Part shown: piece after piece, positions 9,986 through 33,392 of the stretch | Numbering within the stretch: the first letter of the stretch is position 1 | How the letters are laid out: every line of letters begins with the position of its first letter | Assembly (NCBI GenBank): GCA_035286745.1 | Contig: DATECU010000322.1 | Coordinates: forward strand, 1 to 63,009 | DNA: 63,009 nt | From: Vicinamibacteria bacterium | GTDB taxonomy: Bacteria > Acidobacteriota > Vicinamibacteria > Fen-336 | Reading direction: 5' to 3' | Translations under genes and position numbers: made by a program | The notes under the pieces: generated by a model | Told to the model about the DNA's origin: nothing | The model's database searches: none | What the model saw: only the letters and a program-made list of their open reading frames with translations

Positions 9986-11266
9986 ATGACCCGCTCTGCT
10001 GAGCTGTTCGCTCGCGCACAACGAGTGATTCCCGGCGGCGTCAACTCCCCGGTGCGCGCCTTTCGGGCGGTGGGCGGCACGCCGCTCTTCATCGCCCGGG
10101 CCGAGGGGGCTCGCATCTTCGATGCCGACGGGCGCAGCTACCTCGACTACGTCGGCTCCTGGGGACCCATGATCCTGGGCCACGCCTTCCCGCCGGTGGT
10201 GAAGGCGGTGGAGGAGGCCGCGCACCGCGGCACCTCGTTCGGTGCTCCCTGTGAGGCCGAGGTGGAACTGGCCGAGCGGGTGGTACGCCTGGTCCCTTCC
10301 ATCGAAAAGGTGCGCTTCGTGTCCTCAGGAACCGAAGCCACCATGAGCGCTTTGCGTTTGGCGCGCGGGTTCACCGGCCGGCCCAAGATCCTGAAGTGCG
10401 AAGGCTGCTATCACGGCCACGCCGACTCGCTTCTGGTGGCGGCCGGTTCGGGGGTGGCCACCCTGTCCATCCCCGGTTCGCCCGGCGTGCCCGAGGGAAC
10501 GGTGAGCGACACGCTGGTGGCGCCCTTCAACGACATCCCCGCCGTCGAGCGGCTGGTGGCGGCGCATGGGCAGGACTTGGCTGCGCTGATCGTGGAGCCA
10601 GTGGCCGGCAACATGGGCTGCGTTGCTCCCGGCCCCGGCTATCTGGAAGCGCTCCGCGCGATCACGACGGGCTGCGGCGCGCTCCTGATCTTCGACGAGG
10701 TGATGACCGGGTTTCGTTTGGCGCCGGGCGGCGCCCAGGAGCGGTATGGGATCCGGCCCGATCTCACCTGCCTCGGTAAGATCGTGGGCGGCGGGCTGCC
10801 GGCGGCGGCCTACGGGGGCCGGGCGGACATCATGGATCGGGTGGCGCCGGTAGGCCCCGTCTACCAGGCGGGCACGCTCTCTGGGAATCCCCTGGCCATG
10901 GCCGCGGGCGCCGCCACCCTCGATCACCTGGTTAGGCCCGGCAACTACGAGCGGCTGGAAGCCCTCTCCGCGCGCCTGGAAGCGGGTCTCGTGGACGCGG
11001 TTCGCGAGATCGGGGTCTCGGCCACCGTCAATCGGCTGGGCTCCATGATTACCCTCTTCTTCTGTCCGGGACCGGTGATCGACTACGCCACCGCCAAGGC
11101 CGCGGACACCGGCCGCTTCGGCCGCTTCTTCCACGCCATGCTGGAGCACGGCGTCTATCTCCCGCCCGCCCAGTTCGAGGCCGCCTTCGTGTCGCTCGCC
11201 CACAGCGAAGCCGACATCGACGAGACCGTGAAAGCCGCCCGGGAGAGCCTCGCCGCTATTCGGTAG
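9986..11266 (+). CDS. hemL: glutamate-1-semialdehyde 2,1-aminomutase
   Basis: About 426 aa. [14 protein letters not shown] near the N-terminus and a class-III aminotransferase PLP-lysine context [14 protein letters not shown] 9986 is preferred over the TTG at 9980. Confidence 0.95.
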
Positions 11267-24011: not shown

Positions 24012-26861
24012 ATGGAACTGGACCGCGTCATCATCACTGGGGCACGCCAGCACAACCTCAAGAACGTCACCGTCGAGATCCCCAAGAAGAAGCTGGTGAT
24101 CCTGACCGGAGTCTCCGGCTCCGGGAAGTCGAGCCTGGCCTTCGACACCCTCTACGCCGAGGGACAGCGCCGGTATATCGAGAGCCTCTCCGCCTACGCA
24201 CGCCAGTTCCTGGGGCAGATGGACAAGCCGCTCTACGACTCCATCCGCGGCCTGGCCCCCACCATCTCGATCGAGCAGAAGGCCGCCTCCTCCAACCCGC
24301 GCTCGACGGTAGGCACCATCACCGAGATCCACGACTACCTGCGCGTGCTGTGGGCCCGGGTGGGGCGCCTCACCTGCCATCAGTGCGGCCGGGCAGTCTC
24401 CCAGCAGTCCTCCCAGCAGATCGTGAACGAGATCGCCGAGCTGGCGGAGGGGACCAAGTTCCTGCTGCTGGCGCCGCTGGTCAAGGAGCGCAAGGGCGAA
24501 CACAAGGACGTCCTGGAGCAGGTGCGCAAGGCGGGCTTCACTCGAGTCCGCGTCAACGGGATCGTGCTGTCCCTGGAAGACGAGATCCGCCTCGACAAGA
24601 AGAAGAAGCACACGCTGGACGCGGTGGTGGACCGACTGATCGCCAAGCCGGGCCTCAAGCAGCGCCTTCACGACTCGGTGGAGACCGCCCTGCGCTATGG
24701 CGGTGGCATCGTGGTGGTGGCCCCCGAGGGCCAGCCCGAAAAGGTGATGTCGCAGCACCGCGCTTGCCACCACTGCGGCATCTCCTTCCCTGAGCTCACG
24801 CCCCAGCTCTTCTCCTTCAACTCCCCGCTCGGTATGTGCCCCGAGTGCTCGGGCCTGGGCACCCGCATGGAGATGGACCCCGAGCTGGTGATCCCTAACC
24901 CCAACCTCACCATCAACGAGGGCGCCGTCAAGCCGCTAGGCGCAGTCGGTGAGGGCACCGGCTGGGGCACCGACATCGTGCGCGGCGTGGCCCGGGAGCA
25001 CGGGATCGACCTCAACAAGCCCTGGAAACAGCTCCCGGCTGCGCAGCGCAGGATCATCCTTTACGGCACCGGAGAGGACCGGGTCAGGATCGAGATGAAG
25101 GGCTCCTGGGGCACCGGCGCCTTCAAGATGCGCTACGAGGGCGCCATCAACTCGATGATGCGCCGGATGCGGGAGACCCACTCCGAGGACATGCGGCAGT
25201 ACTATCAGAAGTTCCTGTCCAACCGGCCCTGCTCCGCCTGCGCCGGCAAACGCATTCGCGCCGAGGCGCTCGGCGTCAAGGTCGGCGGCAAGAGCATCGC
25301 CGAGGCCACTGCCCTCTCCGTCGACAGTGCCCTCGCCTACTTCGAGGGCCTGGGGCTCAAGGGCAACGAGGCCACCATCGCTGGCGAGCTCTTGAAGGAG
25401 ATCCGCTCCCGCCTGCGCTTCCTGCGCGACGTGGGCCTGGGCTACCTGACCATCGACCGCCCGGCCCCCTCGCTCTCGGGCGGCGAGGGACAACGGATTC
25501 GCTTGGCGAGCCAGATCGGCAGCGAGCTGACCGGCGTCATCTACGTCCTCGACGAGCCCTCGATCGGCCTCCACCAGCGCGACAACAAGAAGCTCTTGGC
25601 CGCGCTCAAGCACCTGCGCGACATCGGCAACAGCGTGGTGGTGGTGGAGCACGACCGGGAGGCCATGGAGGAGTCGGACTGGATCATCGACTTCGGCCCT
25701 GGCGCCGGCCGTCACGGCGGCGAGGTGGTGGCTTTCGGGCCGCCGGCCGAGGTCATGAAGGCGAAGGAGAGCCTGACCGGGCGCTACCTCCGCGGCGATC
25801 TCGCCATCGAGATCCCCCCAGAGCGGCGGCGGGGCGACGGTCGCCAGATCACCCTGGCGGGGGCTCGCGAGAACAACCTCCAGAGCGTGAGCGTCGATTT
25901 CCCGTTAGGCCTCTTCATCTGCGTCACCGGGGTCTCCGGGGCGGGCAAGAGCACCCTGGTCAACCAGATCCTCTATCCGGCGGTGGCGCGGGCGCTTCAC
26001 GGCAGCGATCTGCCCATCGGCGCCCACGACAAGGTGCTGGGGCTTCAGGAGATCGACAAGGTCATCGACATCGACCAGAGCCCCATCGGCCGCACTCCCC
26101 GTTCCAACCCGGCCACCTACACCAAGGTCTTCGACCTGATCCGGGAGTTCTTCGCCATGCTGCCGGAGGCCCGGATGCACGGCTACACCCCGGGCCGCTT
26201 CTCCTTCAACGTCAAGGGCGGGCGCTGCGAAGCTTGCGAGGGCGACGGCGTCAAACGCGTGGAGATGCACTTCCTGGCCGACGTCTACGTCCCCTGCGAG
26301 GTGTGCCAGGGCAAGCGCTTCAACGAGGCCACCCTGCAGGTCAAGTACAACAACCTGTCGGTGGCTGACGTCCTCGACCTCACCGTCGACGAGGCCCTGG
26401 CCCTCTTCAAGAACCACCCCCAGATCAAGCGGTCCCTGGAGACGCTGGCCGACGTGGGCCTGGGCTACATCGCTCTCGGCCAGTCGTCGCCCACGCTCTC
26501 GGGCGGCGAGGCCCAGCGGGTCAAGCTCTCCCGGGAGCTGTCCAAGCGCTCCACGGGCCGAACCCTCTACATCCTCGACGAGCCCACCACCGGCCTCCAC
26601 TTCGACGACATCAAGAAGCTGCTGCGGGTGCTCGATCGTTTGGTGGACGCCGGCAACACGGTGGTGGTCATCGAGCATAACCTGGACGTGATCAAGACTG
26701 CCGACTGGATCGTCGACATCGGCCCCGAGGGCGGCGACGACGGCGGGCGAGTGGTGGCGGTGGGGACGCCAGAGGAAGTGGCCGCGGTCAAGGAGAGCTA
26801 CACCGGCCGCTTCCTGGCGGACCTGCTGCCGAAGGAGAAACCCCGCCGAGCGGCGCGGTGA
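24012..26861 (+). CDS. uvrA: excinuclease ABC subunit A
   Basis: 949 aa. Two ABC modules (GVSGSGKSSLAFDT and GVSGAGKSTLVN), LSGGE signature motifs and CxxC zinc modules. Confidence 0.98.
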   Translation: MELDRVIITGARQHNLKNVTVEIPKKKLVILTGVSGSGKSSLAFDTLYAEGQRRYIESLSAYARQFLGQMDKPLYDSIRGLAPTISIEQKAASSNPRSTVGTITEIHDYLRVLWARVGRLTCHQCGRAVSQQSSQQIVNEIAELAEGTKFLLLAPLVKERKGEHKDVLEQVRKAGFTRVRVNGIVLSLEDEIRLDKKKKHTLDAVVDRLIAKPGLKQRLHDSVETALRYGGGIVVVAPEGQPEKVMSQHRACHHCGISFPELTPQLFSFNSPLGMCPECSGLGTRMEMDPELVIPNPNLTINEGAVKPLGAVGEGTGWGTDIVRGVAREHGIDLNKPWKQLPAAQRRIILYGTGEDRVRIEMKGSWGTGAFKMRYEGAINSMMRRMRETHSEDMRQYYQKFLSNRPCSACAGKRIRAEALGVKVGGKSIAEATALSVDSALAYFEGLGLKGNEATIAGELLKEIRSRLRFLRDVGLGYLTIDRPAPSLSGGEGQRIRLASQIGSELTGVIYVLDEPSIGLHQRDNKKLLAALKHLRDIGNSVVVVEHDREAMEESDWIIDFGPGAGRHGGEVVAFGPPAEVMKAKESLTGRYLRGDLAIEIPPERRRGDGRQITLAGARENNLQSVSVDFPLGLFICVTGVSGAGKSTLVNQILYPAVARALHGSDLPIGAHDKVLGLQEIDKVIDIDQSPIGRTPRSNPATYTKVFDLIREFFAMLPEARMHGYTPGRFSFNVKGGRCEACEGDGVKRVEMHFLADVYVPCEVCQGKRFNEATLQVKYNNLSVADVLDLTVDEALALFKNHPQIKRSLETLADVGLGYIALGQSSPTLSGGEAQRVKLSRELSKRSTGRTLYILDEPTTGLHFDDIKKLLRVLDRLVDAGNTVVVIEHNLDVIKTADWIVDIGPEGGDDGGRVVAVGTPEEVAAVKESYTGRFLADLLPKEKPRRAAR

Positions 26862-26885
26862 GGTGCGACCCCGCCGGTTCTTGGG

Positions 26886-27497
26886 TCACGGGTCGGCCCG
26901 CGGATCAGCGGGCCGGTTGGCGCCAAGCAGGCGGCAGACCTCGCGGTAGAGCTTGTCGAACGAGGGCGAGTTGGTACGAGCCTGCTCGAGATCGAAGAGG
27001 GCGCCCAAGGCTGGCTGGTCAGCGACCTCGGAGTAGGGTCGCTTCATCACCTTCGCCAGCCAGGCCTTGGCGCCACGAACGCCTTCGGCGTCCGGGGGTG
27101 GATCGACGTCTGGCGGGATTCCCCTTCGGCCTCGAAGGGAGTTCGCAGCGGCGAGATACCAAGCCTCCTTCTCGCGGTTGGCGATGACGACAGCCGAGGG
27201 CACGTCGCGTCGCGCCGCGCTGGCGCGTTGGGTGAGAGACGGACCGAGCCTGCAAGGAAGATCGTCATCGGCGTCGATCACGACCAGAATGGCCCCCGAT
27301 CCTCCCAGGCTCCGGGCAGCACGCTCGACCGCGCGCTCCAACTCGCCCGGCCTCACGATCGCATAACGTTGCACGCGAAAGGGCCCCACCAGCCGAGGCG
27401 CGTGAATCCCCTCGGCCTCGGCGATCCTGCGCACGATGAGAGGGATGCTCGCCACATCCCCCTGTCCCTCGACGATCAAGGCCAGCGAGGGTGTCAC
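26886..27497 (-). CDS. DUF4276-family protein (Toprim-like E...DxD signature)
   Basis: 203 aa. First strand LALIVEGQGDV (conserved Glu), ILVVIDADDD (DxD) and VVIANREKEAWYLA, matching my recollection of the DUF4276 pattern. GTG start overlaps the ATPase stop (GTGA). Confidence 0.6.
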   Translation of the reverse strand: MTPSLALIVEGQGDVASIPLIVRRIAEAEGIHAPRLVGPFRVQRYAIVRPGELERAVERAARSLGGSGAILVVIDADDDLPCRLGPSLTQRASAARRDVPSAVVIANREKEAWYLAAANSLRGRRGIPPDVDPPPDAEGVRGAKAWLAKVMKRPYSEVADQPALGALFDLEQARTNSPSFDKLYREVCRLLGANRPADPRADP

Positions 27498-28687
27498 TCG
27501 ACCTGGTCGCTGAAGAGCCTGAGCTGCTTGAGGTTCTGCTCCACCAGGTCGCGGTCCGGTTCGATGGAGCCTTGTGACAGCAGCTCGCCCGCCGCATAGA
27601 GCCGGTCGCGAAGAACCGACCGGGTGGCGGCATCCACCCGGCCCACCACCGTCGCCCCACCCTCGGCGGTGACCGCGAGGAGATGCTCTTCACGGATGGC
27701 CTTGTGGTTGAGCAGGTCGGGAGAGTGCGTCGTGGCCAGGACCTGGACCCGGTCGCTGGCCACGAGCAGGACCTCGGCCATGACCTCGGCGGCTCCCGGA
27801 TGCAAGGCCATCTCGGGCTCTTCGATCCCGACCAGAGAGACCCGGCGCTGTCCATTCAGCTCGGACTGAAACGCGGCCACCAGAATGCCCAGGGATCTCA
27901 GGGTGCCATCCGACATGTCCGCGGCCAGGAACCGCCAGGGGCTGGGATCGCCAGCCATCTCCTGGCGGAACTCCAGGGTCTCCTTCGGTCCGAGCGTCTT
28001 GTGCCCGACCGACACCACTCCGGGAACCACCGCCCTCAAGTGCTCTGCGATCGTCCGCAGCGGGCGGCCCTCTTCAAGACGCCCCAGCTCGCGAACCACG
28101 GCCGCCAGGTTCCTGCCGTCCCGCGCCAGCATCTGGCCGGGATCGGGCTCTTGCAGGTCCCGGATTCGCTCGGGATTCAGGTTGTAGAAGCTCATCCGCC
28201 GCAGGCTCTCGTACAGAGGTCTGAACTCCGGAAGCCCCGAGATGGCGACCAGAGCCAAACGATCCCGCTCCAACGCAGTCGGCAGGGTTCGCGAGGCCTC
28301 TTCGATGTGGCCCTCCCGGACCACGAAGAACTCGGCACCGACTCTGCACTCCTCCCGTTGGACCACGAAGGCCCCGTCTCGTTCGGCGCCCACCCTGAAG
28401 CTGTAGGAGGCCGAGCGTCCGTCCCCCAGAGCTAGGTCAAGTCGTATGCCAAAGTGCGTGGGATGCCCCCGGGATCGTCGTCGGACGGACTGGATTCCTC
28501 CCCGGTCGCGCAGTGCCTGCTCCAGCGTGGTGTTGAGACCGTCGGCCACGAACCTGAGCGCGTCGAGGAAGTTGCTCTTGCCGGAACCGTTGGGTCCCAC
28601 CAAGAAGGTCAGCGGCCCCAGCTCCACTCGGCACCGAGCTATGCTCTTGTAGTTCGTGATGGAGACGGCACTGAGAAGGGGCGGCAT
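27494..28687 (-). CDS. ABC-type (AAA_15/AAA_21, RecF/OLD-like) ATPase
   Basis: 397 aa. ITNYKSI...LGPLTFLVGPNGSGKSNFLDALRF (Walker A), signature-like MSDGTLRSLGIL, Walker B/D-loop LVGIEEPEMALHP and H-loop ATTHSPDLL. Confidence 0.8.
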   Translation of the reverse strand: MPPLLSAVSITNYKSIARCRVELGPLTFLVGPNGSGKSNFLDALRFVADGLNTTLEQALRDRGGIQSVRRRSRGHPTHFGIRLDLALGDGRSASYSFRVGAERDGAFVVQREECRVGAEFFVVREGHIEEASRTLPTALERDRLALVAISGLPEFRPLYESLRRMSFYNLNPERIRDLQEPDPGQMLARDGRNLAAVVRELGRLEEGRPLRTIAEHLRAVVPGVVSVGHKTLGPKETLEFRQEMAGDPSPWRFLAADMSDGTLRSLGILVAAFQSELNGQRRVSLVGIEEPEMALHPGAAEVMAEVLLVASDRVQVLATTHSPDLLNHKAIREEHLLAVTAEGGATVVGRVDAATRSVLRDRLYAAGELLSQGSIEPDRDLVEQNLKQLRLFSDQVE

Positions 28688-28805
28688 GGACTCCCAGGGT
28701 AGTCCCTGGGCCGGGCCGGTTCAACCGTGCCGTCCTACTGGCCCACTGGAGAGGGGCGACTCGCGGACCAGAACCGCGGCCAGGAGGTCGACACGGGGAG
28801 CCCCC

Positions 28806-29690
28806 GTGTCCTTGCGCGTTGTGAGCGCCATCGCGCTTCTGATCGCCTCGTGCGCGCGGGCAGGGTACCTGCACGCTCCCACCCCTGCGGCAGAAGTGTC
28901 CCCGGCTGCCTGCGCTGCGACCGCCGAGGACCCGCTGCTGGCCTGCGCCCCGGTCGTTCTGCAGGAATTCGCCGCGGGGCCCTCTGCGATCCTCGATCGG
29001 CCCACCCCGTTCGATCCCGAGGGCTCAGGCTACCTGGCCGACGACCTTGCGGCCTGGCGGCGGCAGCCGCGGCCGGGCCTGGTTCCGTTCTACGCGTCCC
29101 TGAACCAAGACGCCGAACGACTCTATCTCTTCTACGGCCTCTACTACCCGGCGGACTGGTCGGGCCCCCCGGGGAAGCCGAGGATCGACCACGCCGGAGA
29201 CATGGAAGGGGCGCTGGTGGTGGCGGCTCGTCGCAGCGGTCGGGTCGAGGCCGTCATCACCCAGGCGCACAAGCTCTTCTACCTGTGGACACTCGATCCC
29301 GCTGCGCATCCTCGTGCCGCCTCAGGCCCCATCTCGCTCACTCCAACGGGTCGTCCCATCCTGTTCGCGGAGTCCGGTGGCCATGGGCTCTATGCGTTGG
29401 GCGCTGGGCGATGGACGCCGCGGGGCGGCGGCCGCTATCCGCAGGGCCCGGCGGCGGTCCCGGAAAGCCGCCTGCTCCGCATCGAGTTGGCGCCGGAAGG
29501 CGCGCACGCCGGCCCCCGAGCTGCGGCCGAGATTCGCCCCCTCGACCAACTGCGCGCCTACCGAGACCTGCCGAGAGGCGCCCGCCCGCCCCGGGAATGG
29601 CAGGATCGGCGCGGGCTGGGATCCCGCGGCGCTCTGATCGCTAACCCGGCCGGCCTGCTGGCCGTGCTGGAGCGCGCCAGCCGCCCCTGA
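28806..29690 (+). CDS. hypothetical lipoprotein
   Basis: GTG 28806 gives VSLRVVSAIALLIASC, a signal peptide plus lipobox. The upstream part of the 344-aa track ORF overlaps the divergent ATPase start. Contains YLFYGLYYPADW...IDHAGDMEGALVV. Confidence 0.5.
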   Translation: MSLRVVSAIALLIASCARAGYLHAPTPAAEVSPAACAATAEDPLLACAPVVLQEFAAGPSAILDRPTPFDPEGSGYLADDLAAWRRQPRPGLVPFYASLNQDAERLYLFYGLYYPADWSGPPGKPRIDHAGDMEGALVVAARRSGRVEAVITQAHKLFYLWTLDPAAHPRAASGPISLTPTGRPILFAESGGHGLYALGAGRWTPRGGGRYPQGPAAVPESRLLRIELAPEGAHAGPRAAAEIRPLDQLRAYRDLPRGARPPREWQDRRGLGSRGALIANPAGLLAVLERASRP

Positions 29691-29697
29691 GCCCGTC

Positions 29698-30027
29698 TCA
29701 GCGGGAGCCAGTTCCCCTTCTCTTCTTGCTCGCCTTCCGCCCACCCCGCGACGCGTAGGTCTCCGGGGCCTCGGCACTCAGGGACGCGGTGCCCTTTCCT
29801 GGCTCCTCCTCCGCCACGAAGAAGGCAAGGGGCTTGCCGTAGAGCAGCCCCAGCTCCGACAGCTCGACCACGTCGAGGCGCCGCTCGCCCGACTCGCACT
29901 TGGAGACAAAGGACTGGGTGCGGCTCACCGCAGTAGCCACCTCGGTCTGGGTCAGACCTGCCCCGACCCGCGCCTCGCGGAGGCGCGCCAGCAGCCGGCG
30001 GTACTTCGAGGAGTAGGTCGAGCGCAT
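29698..30027 (-). CDS. XRE-family helix-turn-helix transcriptional regulator
   Basis: 109 aa from ATG 30027. LREARVGAGLTQTEVATAVSRTQSFVSKCESGERRLDVVEL is a canonical Cro/C1 HTH. Basic C-terminal tail. Confidence 0.8.
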   Translation of the reverse strand: MRSTYSSKYRRLLARLREARVGAGLTQTEVATAVSRTQSFVSKCESGERRLDVVELSELGLLYGKPLAFFVAEEEPGKGTASLSAEAPETYASRGGRKASKKRRGTGSR

Positions 30028-30087
30028 GACTCGGGCGCCTAGGGTTGAATTCCGAATCCGGATATTCCAAAATCGGATTTCAGGAAC

Positions 30088-30507
30088 ATGCCCATGAACC
30101 CCTCCCTCCCGACGTTGCCGCCGGCACGGGTTCTGTTGGCGGAAGACGATCCGGCGCTGCGAGACCTCTGGGCCGAGGTCCTCCGAGGCGAGGGGTTCGA
30201 CGTAGTGGCCGCTGCGGACGGGGGTGAGCTGGTCGATCTGTTCTGGAGCCAGGGTCCTTTCGACACTCTCCTGCTCGACGAGGACATGCCGAGGCTCCGG
30301 GGCCGGCAAGCGCTGGCCAGGCTGCGGTCCGCCGGAACCAGGGTGCCGGCCGTGATCTGCAGCGGCAGGGTCGAGATCGATCCGGAGGAGTGCCTGCGCC
30401 TGGGTGTGCGCTTTGTTCTCAGAAAGCCCTGCACGCTGGCGTGCCTGGTGAGCACCATGCGCGCTGCCCTGGAGGATCGGCCCTCCGGCCAGCCGCTCGC
30501 CCCGTGA
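30088..30507 (+). CDS. single-domain response regulator (REC only)
   Basis: 139 aa. Acidic pair LLAEDDP, phospho-acceptor context TLLLDEDMP and conserved K in VLRKP. No output domain. Confidence 0.78.
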   Translation: MPMNPSLPTLPPARVLLAEDDPALRDLWAEVLRGEGFDVVAAADGGELVDLFWSQGPFDTLLLDEDMPRLRGRQALARLRSAGTRVPAVICSGRVEIDPEECLRLGVRFVLRKPCTLACLVSTMRAALEDRPSGQPLAP

Positions 30508-30535
30508 GATCGATCGAGCGGGCCCCGGACCGCGC

Positions 30536-31498
30536 TCAGGAGGAGTGGCTGCCCTCCAGCAAGGCGGCGGCCAGCAGCGGCACCAGCAGCTCGTGATGGC
30601 CGGTCAGACTGTAGCCGCGACCCACGCCGCGGGTGGGTCGCTGGACCACGTTGGTCAGCGGCCGGTAGGACTGGATGAAGTCGAGGTTGGCGGTCGCAAA
30701 GTCGCGGAGGTCGTGGCCCAGGTTGCGAGCCAGGGTGACCGCCTTCAGGAACACCTCGGGCAGAAGCACCGCCGAGCCCACGTTCAGATAGACCCCGCCG
30801 CCGCCCAGCTCGGCCACCTGGGCCGCGAAAAGGCGGAAGTCCAGATGGCTGGAGCGGCCTAACGCAGCGGGATCGCAGGCCGGGTGCAAGTGAACGATGT
30901 CGGTGCCTATCGCCACGTGAACGGTGGCGGGCAACCCCAATCGGTAGGCGGCGCCCAAAAGGCTGACACCAAGGTGCGGCGACGCCGTCTGCACCAGATG
31001 GCGCCCCACTGCCGCCCCCAGGCCCAGGCCGTCCCGATCGCCATCGGCCACCGCCCGGTTGATCCCCTCCCCCGTCTCCCGGGCCATGCCGAACTCGCCC
31101 GAGCCCAGGGTTTCGGCCACCTCCTCGGAGGTCTGCCCCGCCACGGCCAGCTCGAAGTCGTGGACCACGCCGGCGCCGTTCAGGGCGATGCCGGTGACCA
31201 GGCCCTTCTCCATCAAGTCGATCAGCACCGGCGACAAGCCGACCTTGAGGACGTGCCCGCCCAGGCCCCAGAGAATCGGCTTCCCGCGCTCTCTGGCCCG
31301 CAGGATCTCCTGGACCAAGGCGCGCAGGGAGTCCCCAGCCAGGATCCTGGGGAGCGAGTCCAGAAACGCCGCCAGTCCGGTGCCGGGGAGGTGGGGCCGG
31401 GCGAACTGGGCCAGCGTGACCTTGCTCTTGCGTCCGGCCAAAGGGTAGGTGCGGATCCGGTCGAGCTCCAGGGGGCGGGGCGGCTTGCCGGGCTTCAC
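30536..31498 (-). CDS. deoxyhypusine-synthase-like protein (tentative)
   Basis: About 320 aa. GKPILWGLGGHVLKVGLSPVLIDLMEKGLVTGIALNGAGVVHDFE and the C-terminal ELLVPLLAAALLEG resemble DHS-family blocks (TTAGGVEEDxIK; LVFPLLVA). GTG 31498 overlaps the gmhA stop (GTGA). Confidence 0.4.
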   Translation of the reverse strand: MKPGKPPRPLELDRIRTYPLAGRKSKVTLAQFARPHLPGTGLAAFLDSLPRILAGDSLRALVQEILRARERGKPILWGLGGHVLKVGLSPVLIDLMEKGLVTGIALNGAGVVHDFELAVAGQTSEEVAETLGSGEFGMARETGEGINRAVADGDRDGLGLGAAVGRHLVQTASPHLGVSLLGAAYRLGLPATVHVAIGTDIVHLHPACDPAALGRSSHLDFRLFAAQVAELGGGGVYLNVGSAVLLPEVFLKAVTLARNLGHDLRDFATANLDFIQSYRPLTNVVQRPTRGVGRGYSLTGHHELLVPLLAAALLEGSHSS

Positions 31499-32067
31499 GC
31501 CGTGACCGCCTCTTCCACCATCTGGCACAGCAGGTGGATCACCATGCCGTGCACCTCCTGGATGCGGGGGGTGGCCGGGTGGGGGACATCGATCAGGTAG
31601 TCCACGAGACCCGGCAGCTCGCCCCCACCGGCCCCGGTCAACCCCACGGTGACCAGACCTCGCTCCCGGGCCAGCCGCAGGGCGGAGATGACGTTAGGGG
31701 AACGGCCAGAGGTGCTGATGCCAAACGCAACATCCCCAGGCCGGCCGTGGGCCTCCACTTGCCGGCGGAAGACCGCGTCGTAGCCGAGATCGTTGGCCAC
31801 CGCGGTGATCACCGAGGGGTCGGTGGTGAGGGCCAGGGCGGGCAGGGCCGCCCGGTCCCGGAGGAAGCGGCCCAGGAGTTCTCCGGCCAGGTGTTGGGCA
31901 TCGGCGGCCGAGCCCCCGTTGCCGAAGCAGAGGATCTTGCCGCCGGCGCGCAAGCAGCTCGCGAGCCGCTCGCCCACCTCCAGCAGCAGCCGCGCGTTCT
32001 CCCGGAAGAAGCGGTCCTTGAGGGCAATGCTCTCCGCGGCGATGGCCCTCAGGGTTTGCTCGTCCAT
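31495..32067 (-). CDS. gmhA: SIS-domain D-sedoheptulose-7-phosphate isomerase
   Basis: 190 aa. KILCFGNGGSAADAQHLAGEL, GISTSGRSPNV and the C-terminal QEVHGMVIHLL pattern typical of GmhA/DiaA. Confidence 0.8.
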   Translation of the reverse strand: MDEQTLRAIAAESIALKDRFFRENARLLLEVGERLASCLRAGGKILCFGNGGSAADAQHLAGELLGRFLRDRAALPALALTTDPSVITAVANDLGYDAVFRRQVEAHGRPGDVAFGISTSGRSPNVISALRLARERGLVTVGLTGAGGGELPGLVDYLIDVPHPATPRIQEVHGMVIHLLCQMVEEAVTA

Positions 32068-32079
32068 ACCGAAGGCGGA

Positions 32080-32655
32080 TCAGGGCTTGTCGGCGCGGAT
32101 GTGCACGGTGAGCAAGAGCGACTGGAGCGAAGGCTCGTCGACCGCGACCTGGAAGACGGCCCCGTCCTTGAGACCGGCCGGAATCCGCACCGGCACCGGC
32201 AGCCGAGTGTCCAGCCGGCCTTCGCCCCCGCAGTGGCCGCAGTCGAAGCCGGCGCCTCCGGTGCCGCCACACGCCGGGCAGGTCGCCGCCACCGGGATGT
32301 CCAGCGGCAGCGTGCCCCCCTTGGCGGCTTCTCGGGCGGTCAGCACGATCTCACCCGAAAGCGTGCCAGGGCGGGTGGGGCGCCGCAGCTCGCCCATGGC
32401 CGGGCTCTTCAAGAAGGACCAGGACGCGGCGTCGAACCGCCTGTCCCCCTGGCCGAGGGTCTCGTCATAGCGACGGCGGGCCTCGGCGTTGGCCAGCGTT
32501 TCGTAGGCGACCCGCAGGTCATCGATGTCCCCGGTCCCTGCCTGCTTGGCCGGACGCAGCTTTCGGGCCAGGCGCCTGTAGGCCCGCTTGATGGCGTCGG
32601 TCGTCGCATCGCGGGGCACCCCGAGGATGCGGTAGTAGTCCTTGCGTTTCTCCAT
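32080..32655 (-). CDS. J-like domain protein with CxxCxGxG zinc-finger module (HPD motif absent)
   Basis: Starts MEKRKDYYRILGVPRDATTDAIKRAYRRLARKLRPAKQ, with RPA where HPD is expected. Later CPACGGTGGAGFDCGHCGGEG. Confidence 0.7.
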   Translation of the reverse strand: MEKRKDYYRILGVPRDATTDAIKRAYRRLARKLRPAKQAGTGDIDDLRVAYETLANAEARRRYDETLGQGDRRFDAASWSFLKSPAMGELRRPTRPGTLSGEIVLTAREAAKGGTLPLDIPVAATCPACGGTGGAGFDCGHCGGEGRLDTRLPVPVRIPAGLKDGAVFQVAVDEPSLQSLLLTVHIRADKP

Positions 32656-32774
32656 TCCAGCTACACCATAGGTCGTGGCCGGAAGCGGTGTCAAGCCGGC
32701 CTTCGAGCGACGTCCCGGCAGGGTGCTATGATCGCCCGCATACGCTACAGGCTTGCTGAGTCGGGAGGACTCCC

Positions 32775-33392
32775 ATGTCTCCAGAGACGAGTGCGGTCAC
32801 GCAGCTGCTGCTGCGTTTCTTCCACATCTTGTTCGGCGTGGTCTGGCTGGGCCATCTCTACTTCTTCAACTTCGTCAACGGCCCTTTCCAGGCGGTGCTG
32901 GACAAGGAGTTGAAGCCGCGGGTCAACCCGCCCCTGCTGTTGCGCGCCCTGTACTGGTTCCGCTGGGGAGCGGTCTTCACGCTGCTCACCGGCTGGGTGC
33001 TCTTCGGCCTCCTCTACTGGCCTTTCGGGGCCGCGCTGCTCCCTCCCGAAGGGGGCCTGTCGGCCCGCGGCGTCTGGATGCTGATCGGGGCGGTGTTGGG
33101 CACCGTGATGTTCGCCAACGTCTGGCTGGTGATCTGGCCGGTGCAGAAGAAGATCCTCGGCGGTCTGGCGGCGGGTTCGCCGGCACCGCCGGAGCTGGCC
33201 GCGCGGGTCACCCTGGTGTCGCGGATCAACCTGTTCCTCTCCGCCCCCATGCTGATGGGGATGGTCGCCGGCTCCCATCACGAGGTTTGGGCGCTGATGC
33301 CCGGCTGGATGCACGGGGTGTTTCTGATCCTGACCTTGGGCGGCGTCCACGGTCTCTGGAAGCGGGCTCAGAAGGCCGGTGGGAGCCTCTGA
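32775..33392 (+). CDS. membrane protein, Urate_ox_N/PuuD-N-terminal-like (tentative)
   Basis: 205 aa, about 5 TM helices. N-terminus LLRFFHILFGVVWLGHLYFFNFVN resembles the membrane domain of PuuD-type proteins. No cytochrome c domain. Confidence 0.4.
   Translation: MSPETSAVTQLLLRFFHILFGVVWLGHLYFFNFVNGPFQAVLDKELKPRVNPPLLLRALYWFRWGAVFTLLTGWVLFGLLYWPFGAALLPPEGGLSARGVWMLIGAVLGTVMFANVWLVIWPVQKKILGGLAAGSPAPPELAARVTLVSRINLFLSAPMLMGMVAGSHHEVWALMPGWMHGVFLILTLGGVHGLWKRAQKAGGSL

Follow-up and report, generated by a model that had tools for sequence, protein, structure and literature searches.

An obligate ABC ATPase-DUF4276 gene pair of the HEC-01 family beside uvrA in a Vicinamibacteria genome: a candidate nuclease defence module

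Organization of the locus

The window, i.e. the whole stretch of 63,009 nucleotides of Vicinamibacteria DNA that was analyzed, carries two adjacent genes on its reverse strand. One (27494..28687, ATG start) encodes a 397-aa ATPase, HEC-01A, and the other (26886..27497, GTG start) a 203-aa DUF4276 protein, HEC-01B. In the sequence, the GTG start of the small gene lies on the TGA stop of the ATPase gene, forming a GTGA overlap on the reverse strand (27497-27494). By this overlap at 27494-27497, the ATPase gene and the small gene are translationally coupled. An earlier note, made from the DNA letters, had described the same two proteins and junction, and both the ORFs and the sequence agree with it. 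The frames of the pair were favoured over overlapping antisense ORFs because of their GC3 values (0.82 and 0.77).

A promoter-like element on the reverse strand (28696..28724) was inferred from the sequence. It combines TTGAAC (28724-28719), a 17-nt spacer and TACCCT (28701-28696), ends 8 nt 5' of the ATPase ATG and overlaps an SD-like GGGAG (28695-28691). Its TTGA and TA..CT are kept in the lineage relatives L106 and L109/L112. A consensus scan of positions 26600-29000 reported neither promoter nor terminator, the lack of a promoter call being due to the -10 hexamer, which fits at 3 of 6 positions only. A perfect inverted repeat located 5' of the ATPase start (CCCAGGG-N4-CCCTGGG) was also considered as an element, and dropped since it is not kept in relatives.

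On one side, the pair is convergent to its neighbour uvrA (24012-26861, forward strand). Three ORFs lie on the other side: a putative lipoprotein ORF (28656-29690, forward strand) with a lipobox-like LLIASC and without a family match, an HTH_31/HTH_3 (XRE-type) ORF (29698-30309, reverse strand) and a receiver-only ORF (30088-30507, forward strand). The uvrA, XRE-type and receiver-only genes are thus found as previously described. At its annotated start, the lipoprotein-like ORF shares 32 bp with the start of the ATPase gene; at 0.62, its GC2 is also unusually high.

HEC-01A is an OLD/SMC-like ABC ATPase

HEC-01A matched Pfam AAA_21 at 1.8e-27 and AAA_15 at 3.8e-21; for both proteins of the pair, the Pfam matches go well past what chance would give. 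Its motifs are a Walker A (G31-P-N-G-S-G-K37-S38), a signature-like motif (M258-S-D-G261), a Walker B region (E289-E-P-E292) and an H-loop (H321-S-P), and all four are invariant in 51 homologues. The motif strings quoted in the earlier note are indeed present, both in the ATPase (GPNGSGKSN, MSDGTLRSL, IEEPEMALHP, ATTHSPDLL) and in the small protein (LALIVEGQGD, VVIDADDD).

The AF2 model of HEC-01A reached a pLDDT of 91.2. When submitted to Foldseek, it matched an SMC head (9e-14) and the T. scotoductus OLD structure 6p74 (3e-13), and also PtuA, GajA and Rad50. The same OLD structure was the best match in a search of PDB sequences (5.4e-9). HEC-01A also matched AbiLi (3.4e-18) and, generically, the AriA models (1e-28). 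The match to the PADLOC model PDLC04178 (HEC-01A) was 6.4e-149 with 494 bits, spanning protein residues 3-393 and model positions 7-395 of 399. HEC-01A is an OLD/SMC-like ABC ATPase with an ABC head fold.

HEC-01B is a predicted Toprim-superfamily protein

HEC-01B matched Pfam DUF4276 (PF14103) at 3.2e-8, scoring 34.5 bits where the gathering score is 30.2, over model positions 1-189 of 192; all 55 aligned homologues also match this family. With the PADLOC model PDLC04196 (HEC-01B), the match reached 2.2e-66 and joined residues 1-193 to model positions 1-194 of 197.

In the AF2 model of HEC-01B (pLDDT 95.6, pTM 0.90), DSSP assigned the elements E4-9, H12-28, E35-41, H52-64, E69-75, H81-95, E101-106 and H111-121, i.e. 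the order b1-a-b2-a-b3-a-b4-a. Helices make up the C-terminal half (about residues 111-190). Five acidic residues are placed at strand ends in the model: E10 follows strand 1, the D75-x-D77 motif follows strand 3, and E109/E111 follow strand 4. They are highly conserved among homologues (E10 in 85/87, D75 in 87/87, D77 in 81/87, E109 in 86/87 and E111 in 87/87), and R24, W113 and K144 are likewise conserved. We propose E10, D75, D77, E109 and E111 as candidate metal-site residues. The Glu and DxD signature that had been read as Toprim-like from the sequence is strengthened by the predicted structure, in which E10 and D75/D77 stand right after strands 1 and 3.

The resemblance to known Toprim domains was assayed at the levels of fold and sequence. 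The only significant Foldseek match of HEC-01B was a predicted RloB-like protein (4e-4, TM 0.55, full length). The C-terminal Toprim domains of OLD proteins (6njv, 6nk8, 6njw and 6njx) were within the top 34 PDB fold matches, with E values of 0.019-0.051 and TMq of 0.33-0.42, amid generic alpha/beta folds. In Pfam, RloB was matched weakly by 6 of the 55 family members (best E 0.039), and OLD-like_TOPRIM (PF20469) by one of them (E 0.24). A search of PDB sequences with a profile of the DUF4276 alignment gave no match, even at E up to 10. The hhalign probability between the DUF4276 profile and P2 Old C-terminal sequences was below 1%, which is a weak test given the low diversity of the Toprim alignment. 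Indeed, that alignment consisted of OLD class-1 C-terminal sequences from viral contigs, and the homologue search with the P2 Old C-terminal region returned 5 near-identical matches only. In this analysis the Toprim link of HEC-01B is therefore statistically significant only via RloB, and not against OLD Toprim directly.

In published work, DUF4276 and RloB are both placed in the Toprim superfamily (PMC12065111), and a metal site common to HEC-01B and the Toprim domain of OLD is described (Payne et al., bioRxiv 10.1101/2024.01.29.577857). No demonstration of nuclease activity for any DUF4276 protein was found in the literature examined. HEC-01B is predicted to be a Toprim-superfamily nuclease effector.

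The two genes form an obligate pair

Conservation of the pairing was followed in 80 genome loci. An ATPase homologue was found directly upstream, on the same strand, in 79/79 testable loci; the 80th was left out of this count because its contig has just 215 bp upstream. The pairing of ATPase and DUF4276 is obligate, which answers the survey of its conservation suggested in the earlier note. Of 67 called pairs, 33 overlap by 4 bp, which is the commonest junction between the two genes, and in most of the rest the junction falls within a few bases; the 4-bp overlap also recurs in a RefSeq example. A natural fusion, P0268 (609 aa), was also found. Its ATPase part is 42% identical to the window ATPase and is followed by DUF4276 at residues 414-606, which reproduces the single-chain layout of OLD.

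The ATPase and DUF4276 family is patchily spread over many phyla. This patchy spread and a GC3 below that of the flanking genes were counted in favour of the defence reading.

The pair lies outside defence islands

In the region of the pair, GC3 is 0.77-0.82, as compared with 0.86-0.93 in the flanking genes, and relatives lack the lipoprotein-like, XRE and REC ORFs. To this extent, the accessory patch proposed earlier is retained. However, the pair itself adjoins uvrA at the equivalent site in related assemblies, which have UvrA proteins of 86-90% identity. The lipoprotein-like, XRE and REC ORFs were rejected as parts of the system, as they have no counterpart beside any related pair. A functional link of the pair to uvrA was also rejected, the adjacency being lineage-specific synteny: uvrA was found within 10 kb in only one of 80 genome loci (L057). 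In Poribacteria, the pair occupies a conserved site beside PhyH and sulfatase genes. Such retention at one site, in the window lineage as in Poribacteria, contrasts with defence genes, which typically turn over rapidly.

No defence or mobile-element gene, methyltransferase or helicase was found within about 15 kb of the pair in the window. The locus is outside any defence island, and its site is conserved in related genomes. In the 80 genomes the immediate neighbours were mostly metabolic, with DUF1156 matched by 2 proteins and ResIII by 2. The family is also rare on mobile replicons. It was found in 3 of 72,556 plasmid records and 1 of 50,697 phage records, and had no PHROG match. Large plasmids of Streptomyces carry some copies, in the vicinity of genes for an IS701 transposase, a recombinase and conjugal transfer.

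Relationship to known systems

PADLOC assigned both proteins to HEC-01 (6.4e-149 and 2.2e-66), which settles a check that the earlier note had called for. It is almost certain that the gene pair is a HEC-01 member. It is a routine, intact member of this already catalogued candidate anti-phage system, whose name stands for Hma-embedded candidate 01 in PADLOC-DB v2. Payne et al. (bioRxiv 10.1101/2024.01.29.577857) defined HEC-01, discovered via its embedding in Hma loci, and tested it. Earlier publications thus already cover the ATPase-DUF4276 pair, read it as Toprim-like and relate it to OLD and PARIS. [quoted passage not shown]

Two phage tests of HEC-01 have been reported. In the work of Payne et al. 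[quoted passage not shown] One HEC-01 cluster, alone in E. coli B, was protective against one or more of the phages T7, T5 and T4 (PMC12881386). With one negative and one positive test available, the statement that such a pairing had never been characterized experimentally is out of date.

PARIS (AriA/AriB; OLD-like class 4) resembles the window pair in having a split AAA_15/21 ABC ATPase followed by a separate Toprim-type nuclease, and fused variants occur both in PARIS and in the HEC-01 family. Because this split ATPase/nuclease layout is shared, PARIS is a plausible model of a sensor ATPase releasing a nuclease. However, the predicted nuclease of the window pair is a DUF4276 protein of about 22 kDa, as opposed to the DUF4435 protein AriB (35 kDa), and the generic AriA-model matches are far weaker than the HEC-01A match. 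PARIS is also often carried by phages or satellites, whereas the window family is nearly absent from phages and plasmids. Membership of PARIS was rejected: in PADLOC, HEC-01B matches HEC-01 models alone, there is no AriB, and Pfam gave no DUF4435 match at E up to 10. The OLD proteins (P2 Old, T. scotoductus OLD 6p74, B. pseudomallei OLD 6nk8) are similar in the sequence and fold of their ATPase and in the placement of the E and DxD residues. They differ in being single polypeptides; the window system consists of two ORFs, and fusions such as P0268 are rare.

Other ATPase-nuclease systems were considered and set aside. Septu (PtuA/PtuB) was rejected, since the partner is a DUF4276 protein without an HNH match and the PtuA NCBIfam model gave 23.9 bits against a cut-off of 500. 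Gabija was rejected, as no helicase (GajB) is present in the vicinity and the pair is split, not fused as in GajA. A publication on PARIS (PMC11464382) counts MADS3-4, a DUF4276 pair, among ABC-ATPase/TOPRIM systems, grouped as OLD-like, and describes Mad3 as an AAA_15/21 ATPase. Similarly, PMC12065111 assigns Mad4 and some Menshen NsnC C-terminal domains to DUF4276. Nevertheless, the NCBIfam MAD3 model NF047739 gave 101.7 bits against a cut-off of 420, and neither a methyltransferase nor other mad genes lie within about 15 kb, so that MADS membership was rejected. Matches to mad3 (2.8e-97) and mad8 that might have indicated a nearby MADS system were both attributed to the C-terminal ABC module of UvrA. 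In contrast to Menshen and MADS, the window locus is a two-gene unit without nearby mad or nsn genes. Finally, RloA/RloB and AbiLi/AbiLii also combine an AAA_21-type ATPase with a small partner of the Toprim superfamily. RloA/RloB-type pairs sit in Type I RM loci (PMC12065111), a location typical of RloAB and not shared by the window pair, and their partner belongs to Pfam RloB instead of DUF4276.

Discussion

Fold matches, the 79/79 pairing, the Toprim-like element order and the PADLOC assignment all support the candidate split OLD/PARIS-style defence module put forward in the earlier note. We conclude that the locus is probably a stand-alone chromosomal two-gene HEC-01 operon in which HEC-01B has a Toprim-type, metal-dependent nuclease core. 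Our preferred reading, with a probability of about 0.6, is that the pair works as a nuclease defence module under ATP control. A defence role in the host organism, the division of labour between sensor and effector, the trigger and the substrate are proposed here by analogy. As in PARIS and OLD, the ATPase would oligomerise and keep the nuclease inactive. Its variable inserts might sense a cue from phage or foreign DNA, such as an anti-restriction protein or a nucleic acid of abnormal structure. ATP binding or hydrolysis would then free or activate the nuclease, which might cleave nucleic acid (DNA, or tRNA as AriB does) and thereby abort infection.

The pair could also be an orphan, the accessory part of some methylation-based system (Hma, MADS or Type I RM). 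It would then depend on a partner, for instance as a back-up when this partner is inhibited, and would be inert alone here. HEC-01 was indeed found embedded in Hma loci and the construct tested on its own by its discoverers gave no protection; RloA/RloB-type pairs lie inside Type I RM loci, Mad3-Mad4 belong to the multi-gene MADS system (PMC12065111, PMC11464382), and the few neighbour proteins with DUF1156 (2) or ResIII (2) resemble Hma or RM parts. Nevertheless, most of the 79 surveyed pairs are not directly flanked by RM or Hma genes, no methyltransferase or helicase was found within about 15 kb in the window, and a HEC-01 cluster was protective alone in E. coli B (PMC12881386). The ORFs are moreover intact and the catalytic motifs invariant, which speaks for selection acting on a function that the pair has by itself. 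Dependence on a partner system is unlikely. A selfish pair of the addiction or toxin-antitoxin type, with a nuclease toxin curbed by the ATPase and maintained by post-segregational killing and not by a benefit to the host, would be in keeping with the tightly coupled two-gene architecture and with the Streptomyces plasmid copies found near transposase, recombinase and conjugal transfer genes. The Pfam label of AAA_21, 'putative AbiEii toxin, Type IV TA system', points the same way, but as the name of a whole family it is no evidence about the window protein. As copies on plasmids and phages are very rare and the chromosomal synteny is stable, we consider such a pair very unlikely.

The ATPase fold fits SMC and Rad50 heads no less well than it fits defence ATPases. 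RecF is an SMC-like ABC ATPase, and RecR contains a Toprim domain. The pair might then be a module domesticated for housekeeping, in DNA repair or maintenance, which would act on chromosomal lesions or structures like RecF-RecR or SbcCD/Rad50-Mre11, and not against phages. The convergent position next to uvrA, kept in related assemblies with 86-90% identical UvrA, the conserved Poribacteria site beside PhyH and sulfatase genes and surroundings without a defence island or mobile element are consistent with this possibility. If true, it would explain both the position outside defence islands and the one negative heterologous phage test. However, linkage to uvrA is confined to one lineage (1/80 loci, L057, with uvrA within 10 kb), and the two are not co-transcribed since the genes are convergent. 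The phylum distribution is patchy, not universal, and GC3 is lower in the pair than in its housekeeping neighbours. Furthermore, relatives are embedded in Hma, MADS and Menshen defence loci, and one relative is phage-protective. It is therefore quite unlikely that the HEC-01 lineage of the window is a vertically inherited, domesticated chromosomal module with a nucleic-acid-processing role in the manner of RecF-RecR.

The two phage tests published for the HEC-01 family gave opposite outcomes. The comparative data collected in this analysis on pairing, coupling, fusion, the acidic residues E10, D75, D77, E109 and E111, and genomic context could guide the choice of constructs and mutants. The context of this HEC-01 subfamily is mostly non-island and non-mobile, and its stable synteny calls for caution before a defence role is presumed from family membership alone.

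Organization of the gene pair and assignment to HEC-01

The ATPase gene (27494-28687, minus strand, 397 aa, ATG start) and the DUF4276 gene (26886-27497, minus strand, 203 aa, GTG start) were both recovered as co-oriented ORFs at the coordinates proposed in an earlier note on this DNA, together with all the motifs that it quoted. The translational overlap was also confirmed, the GTG start of the small gene overlapping the TGA stop of the ATPase gene in a GTGA at 27497-27494. The window has a GC content of 69% and numerous antisense ORFs; GC at third positions (0.82 for the ATPase gene and 0.77 for the DUF4276 gene) supports these two frames over the many antisense ones. A promoter-like element (TTGAAC-17 nt-TACCCT, 28691-28724, minus strand) ends 8 nt upstream of the ATPase ATG, which would imply a very short leader or none. 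Its TTGA and TA..CT are kept in three related loci (L106, L109 and L112). Overlapping this element is a perfect inverted repeat, CCCAGGG-N4-CCCTGGG (28693-28710), which showed no conservation in relatives.

In Pfam, the ATPase matched AAA_21 (1.8e-27) and AAA_15, and the small protein matched DUF4276 (34.5 bits for a gathering score of 30.2). In RefSeq the names of the two proteins go no further than "AAA family ATPase" and "DUF4276 family protein". The PADLOC search that the earlier note had suggested was more specific: full-length matches were obtained to the HEC-01A model for the ATPase (6.4e-149) and to the HEC-01B model for the small protein (2.2e-66). All other defence ATPase models, AriA, Old, GajA, mad3, NsnB and AbiLi among them, scored tens of orders of magnitude below HEC-01A, and the small protein had no PADLOC-DB match outside the HEC-01 models. 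The small protein is not covered by any NCBIfam model; with the MAD3 model, whose cut-off is 420, the ATPase reached 101.7 bits. Thus, judged from these sequence scores, the locus is a member of HEC-01, a catalogued candidate anti-phage system. Membership of PARIS, Septu, Gabija or MADS was ruled out by the same scores.

HEC-01 was discovered embedded in Hma loci and described as an ABC ATPase with a TOPRIM-like protein, the metal site of which matches that of B. pseudomallei OLD; the single representative tried in E. coli gave no protection (Payne et al., bioRxiv 10.1101/2024.01.29.577857). In a cold-seep survey, E. coli B carrying one HEC-01 cluster was protected from at least one of the phages T7, T5 and T4 (PMC12881386). 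With one negative and one positive phage test published, the earlier note's statement that the pairing is experimentally uncharacterised is out of date. A study of Menshen placed DUF4276 and RloB in the Toprim superfamily, with a conserved Glu and DxD, and identified Mad4 of MADS as a DUF4276 protein (PMC12065111). Therefore the reading of the pair as a split OLD/PARIS-type module, ATPase plus Toprim-like protein, is supported but was already in the literature, and the locus is an ordinary, already known member of a catalogued candidate system.

Conservation of the pairing

When one genome per GTDB species was scanned, the small protein had at least 466 relatives, of which the best 80 were fetched. 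They span Poribacteria, Acidobacteriota, Myxococcota, Actinomycetota, Planctomycetota, Verrucomicrobiota, Chloroflexota, Spirochaetia and other groups. In 79 of these best 80 loci, the gene directly upstream, in the same orientation, encodes an ATPase homologue; the 80th has just 215 bp of contig upstream of its DUF4276 gene, so that the pairing was found in every one of the 79 assessable loci and the neighbourhood survey proposed in the earlier note bears out its conservation. The two genes most often overlap by 4 bp (33 of 67 called pairs), and most remaining junctions fall within a few bases. An exhaustive profile search, run at E up to 1e-3, yielded 4092 representatives at 50% identity.

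Among the 150 best matches listed from the representative library, the protein P0268 (609 aa) is an apparent natural fusion of the two genes. Its N-terminal part (residues 9-365) shares 42% identity with the window ATPase, and residues 414-606 form a complete DUF4276 domain. This single-chain layout of an ATPase followed by a C-terminal domain is like that of OLD, and mirrors the "merged" AriAB forms of PARIS. Another DUF4276 match, in an Acidimicrobiales locus (L055, ~10001-10588), lies inside a 1246-aa ORF obtained by crude ORF calling, which is either a long C-terminal fusion or a calling artefact of high-GC DNA.

Structural features of the two proteins

Across 51 ATPase homologues there is no variation in the Walker A residues G31, N33, G34, G36, K37 and S38, in the signature-like MSDG (258-261), in EEPE (289-292) or in the H-loop H321. 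The top PDB sequence match is the T. scotoductus OLD (6p74, 5.4e-9). The structure model (pLDDT 91.2) is about equally near to SMC and Rad50 heads, PtuA (from Septu and retron complexes), OLD and GajA, with E values of ~1e-13 and TM scores of 0.45-0.58. As modelled, the protein is a genuine ABC-ATPase head, and no one solved structure stands out as its closest relative.

The AlphaFold model of the small protein, built on 55 homologues (pLDDT 95.6, pTM 0.90), shows the order b1(4-9)-a-b2(35-41)-a-b3(69-75)-a-b4(101-106)-a; the C-terminal half that comes after it is helical. E10, directly after b1, is conserved in 85 of 87 sequences; D75 (87/87) and D77 (81/87) form a DxD at the end of b3, and E109 (86/87) and E111 (87/87) directly follow b4. 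R24, W113 and K144 are conserved as well. In this model the conserved acids sit where a Toprim site needs them. Some relatives from loci L001-L113 carry Gly at E10 (2/87) or Gly or Asn at D77 (3/87), for example the homologue P0069 in alignment A1; judged from sequence, such members may be inactive variants.

Foldseek comparison of the model with the PDB gave nothing at E <=1e-3. Four C-terminal Toprim entries of OLD appeared at E 0.02-0.05 (TM <=0.42), amid generic three-layer alpha/beta folds. The sole significant Foldseek match was a predicted RloB-like phage protein (4e-4, TM 0.55, full length). The similarity of the DUF4276 profile to P2 Old-type Toprim sequences was not significant; a permissive alignment pairs E with E and DADDD with ADCD. 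Pfam RloB and OLD-like_TOPRIM signals for the family are faint. The statistical support found here for the Toprim-like character proposed for this protein is weaker than the literature implies. Together with the two published structural analyses, motif placement and secondary-structure order support, without independently proving, a place in the Toprim superfamily.

Genomic context

In the window, the pair is convergent with uvrA (24012-26861, plus strand), 25 bp away. The other neighbours described in the earlier note, an XRE-type HTH ORF (29698-30309, minus strand) and a receiver-only (REC) ORF (30088-30507, plus strand), are present on the far side from uvrA. The longest form of the XRE ORF (203 aa) overlaps the REC ORF and has its HTH at residues 106-163, which favours an internal Met, probably at ~30027, as the true start; the regulator would then be ~109 aa long and divergently oriented to the receiver-only gene, with a gap of ~60 bp between the two. 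The "orphan lipoprotein" (28656-29690, plus strand, 344 aa) does have a lipobox-like LLIASC, downstream of an Arg-rich N-terminus, but its start is doubtful and its status as a gene unsure: as annotated, its start and that of the ATPase gene overlap by 32 bp, it has an unusually high GC2 (0.62), and it had no Pfam or PADLOC match and no tblastn match in any of the fetched loci. Within ~15 kb, genes for a SpoIIE/PDZ protein, a porin and a GGDEF protein precede uvrA on one side, and a 330-aa no-Pfam protein is followed by SIS, DnaJ, Urate_ox_N-like, metallo-beta-lactamase and OmpA genes on the other. Besides the pair, this interval holds no mobile-element or defence genes. UvrA itself matches the PADLOC models mad3 (PDLC04135, 2.8e-97, residues 620-933) and mad8 (PDLC04140, 6.5e-39), so these hits were rejected as MADS genes. 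Both models cross-react strongly with the C-terminal ABC module of UvrA, which could mislead single-gene defence annotation.

In related metagenome contigs (L106 and L109-L112), the pair occupies the same chromosomal site as in the window (26886-33392); identities are 86-90% for UvrA, 74-80% for the ATPase and 68-70% for DUF4276. The pair is convergent with uvrA directly in L106 and beyond a few extra genes in L109-L112. The far-side block (330-aa gene, DnaJ and Urate_ox_N) is present in L109 and L110, the two relatives in which the fetched sequence reaches it. The genes in between vary, with BMC-like, PIG-L, PAD_porph, SDR and Ser/Thr kinase genes among the filler, and none of the fetched loci has a counterpart of the lipoprotein-like, XRE or REC ORF. 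The region next to uvrA is thus variable, with a conserved pair.

Across the 80 genome loci, uvrA is nearby in one. Immediate neighbours are mostly metabolic, and only two neighbour proteins matched DUF1156 and two ResIII, which could be Hma or RM parts. In many Poribacteria among L002-L035 (for example L002, L005, L008 and L014), a PhyH-family dioxygenase gene lies upstream and a sulfatase gene downstream of the pair (14 and 15 matches, respectively); these conserved flanks suggest long vertical retention at one site. The small protein has no PHROG match; 3 of 72,556 plasmids encode it, as does 1 of 50,697 phage records. One plasmid copy, carried by a large linear Streptomyces replicon, has an IS701 transposase, a recombinase and a conjugal transfer gene in its vicinity.

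Proposed function

By analogy, an ATP-controlled nuclease module of the OLD/PARIS kind is the best-supported model. In it, the ATPase would be the sensor and would hold its partner in check, and the Toprim-like protein would be a metal-dependent nuclease effector, released or activated upon infection and acting on DNA or tRNA. Coupled translation would provide matched amounts of both proteins. The analysis establishes that the two genes are linked and coupled, that their motifs are intact and conserved, which folds they are modelled to have, and that they belong to HEC-01; how the two proteins share the work, what triggers them and what they cut are inferred.

The stable, non-island and non-mobile context of the pair, together with the single negative phage test of HEC-01, keeps three other explanations alive: the genes could be a repair or maintenance module that has been domesticated, comparable to RecF-RecR; an accessory orphaned from a methylation-based system; or a selfish addiction pair. 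The patchy phyletic spread, the lower GC3 of the pair, the relatives embedded in defence loci and the one positive HEC-01 phage test favour a defence role, which we infer for this organism as well. DUF4276 proteins, whose biochemistry is unsolved, and the comparative data gathered here give the locus its remaining value.
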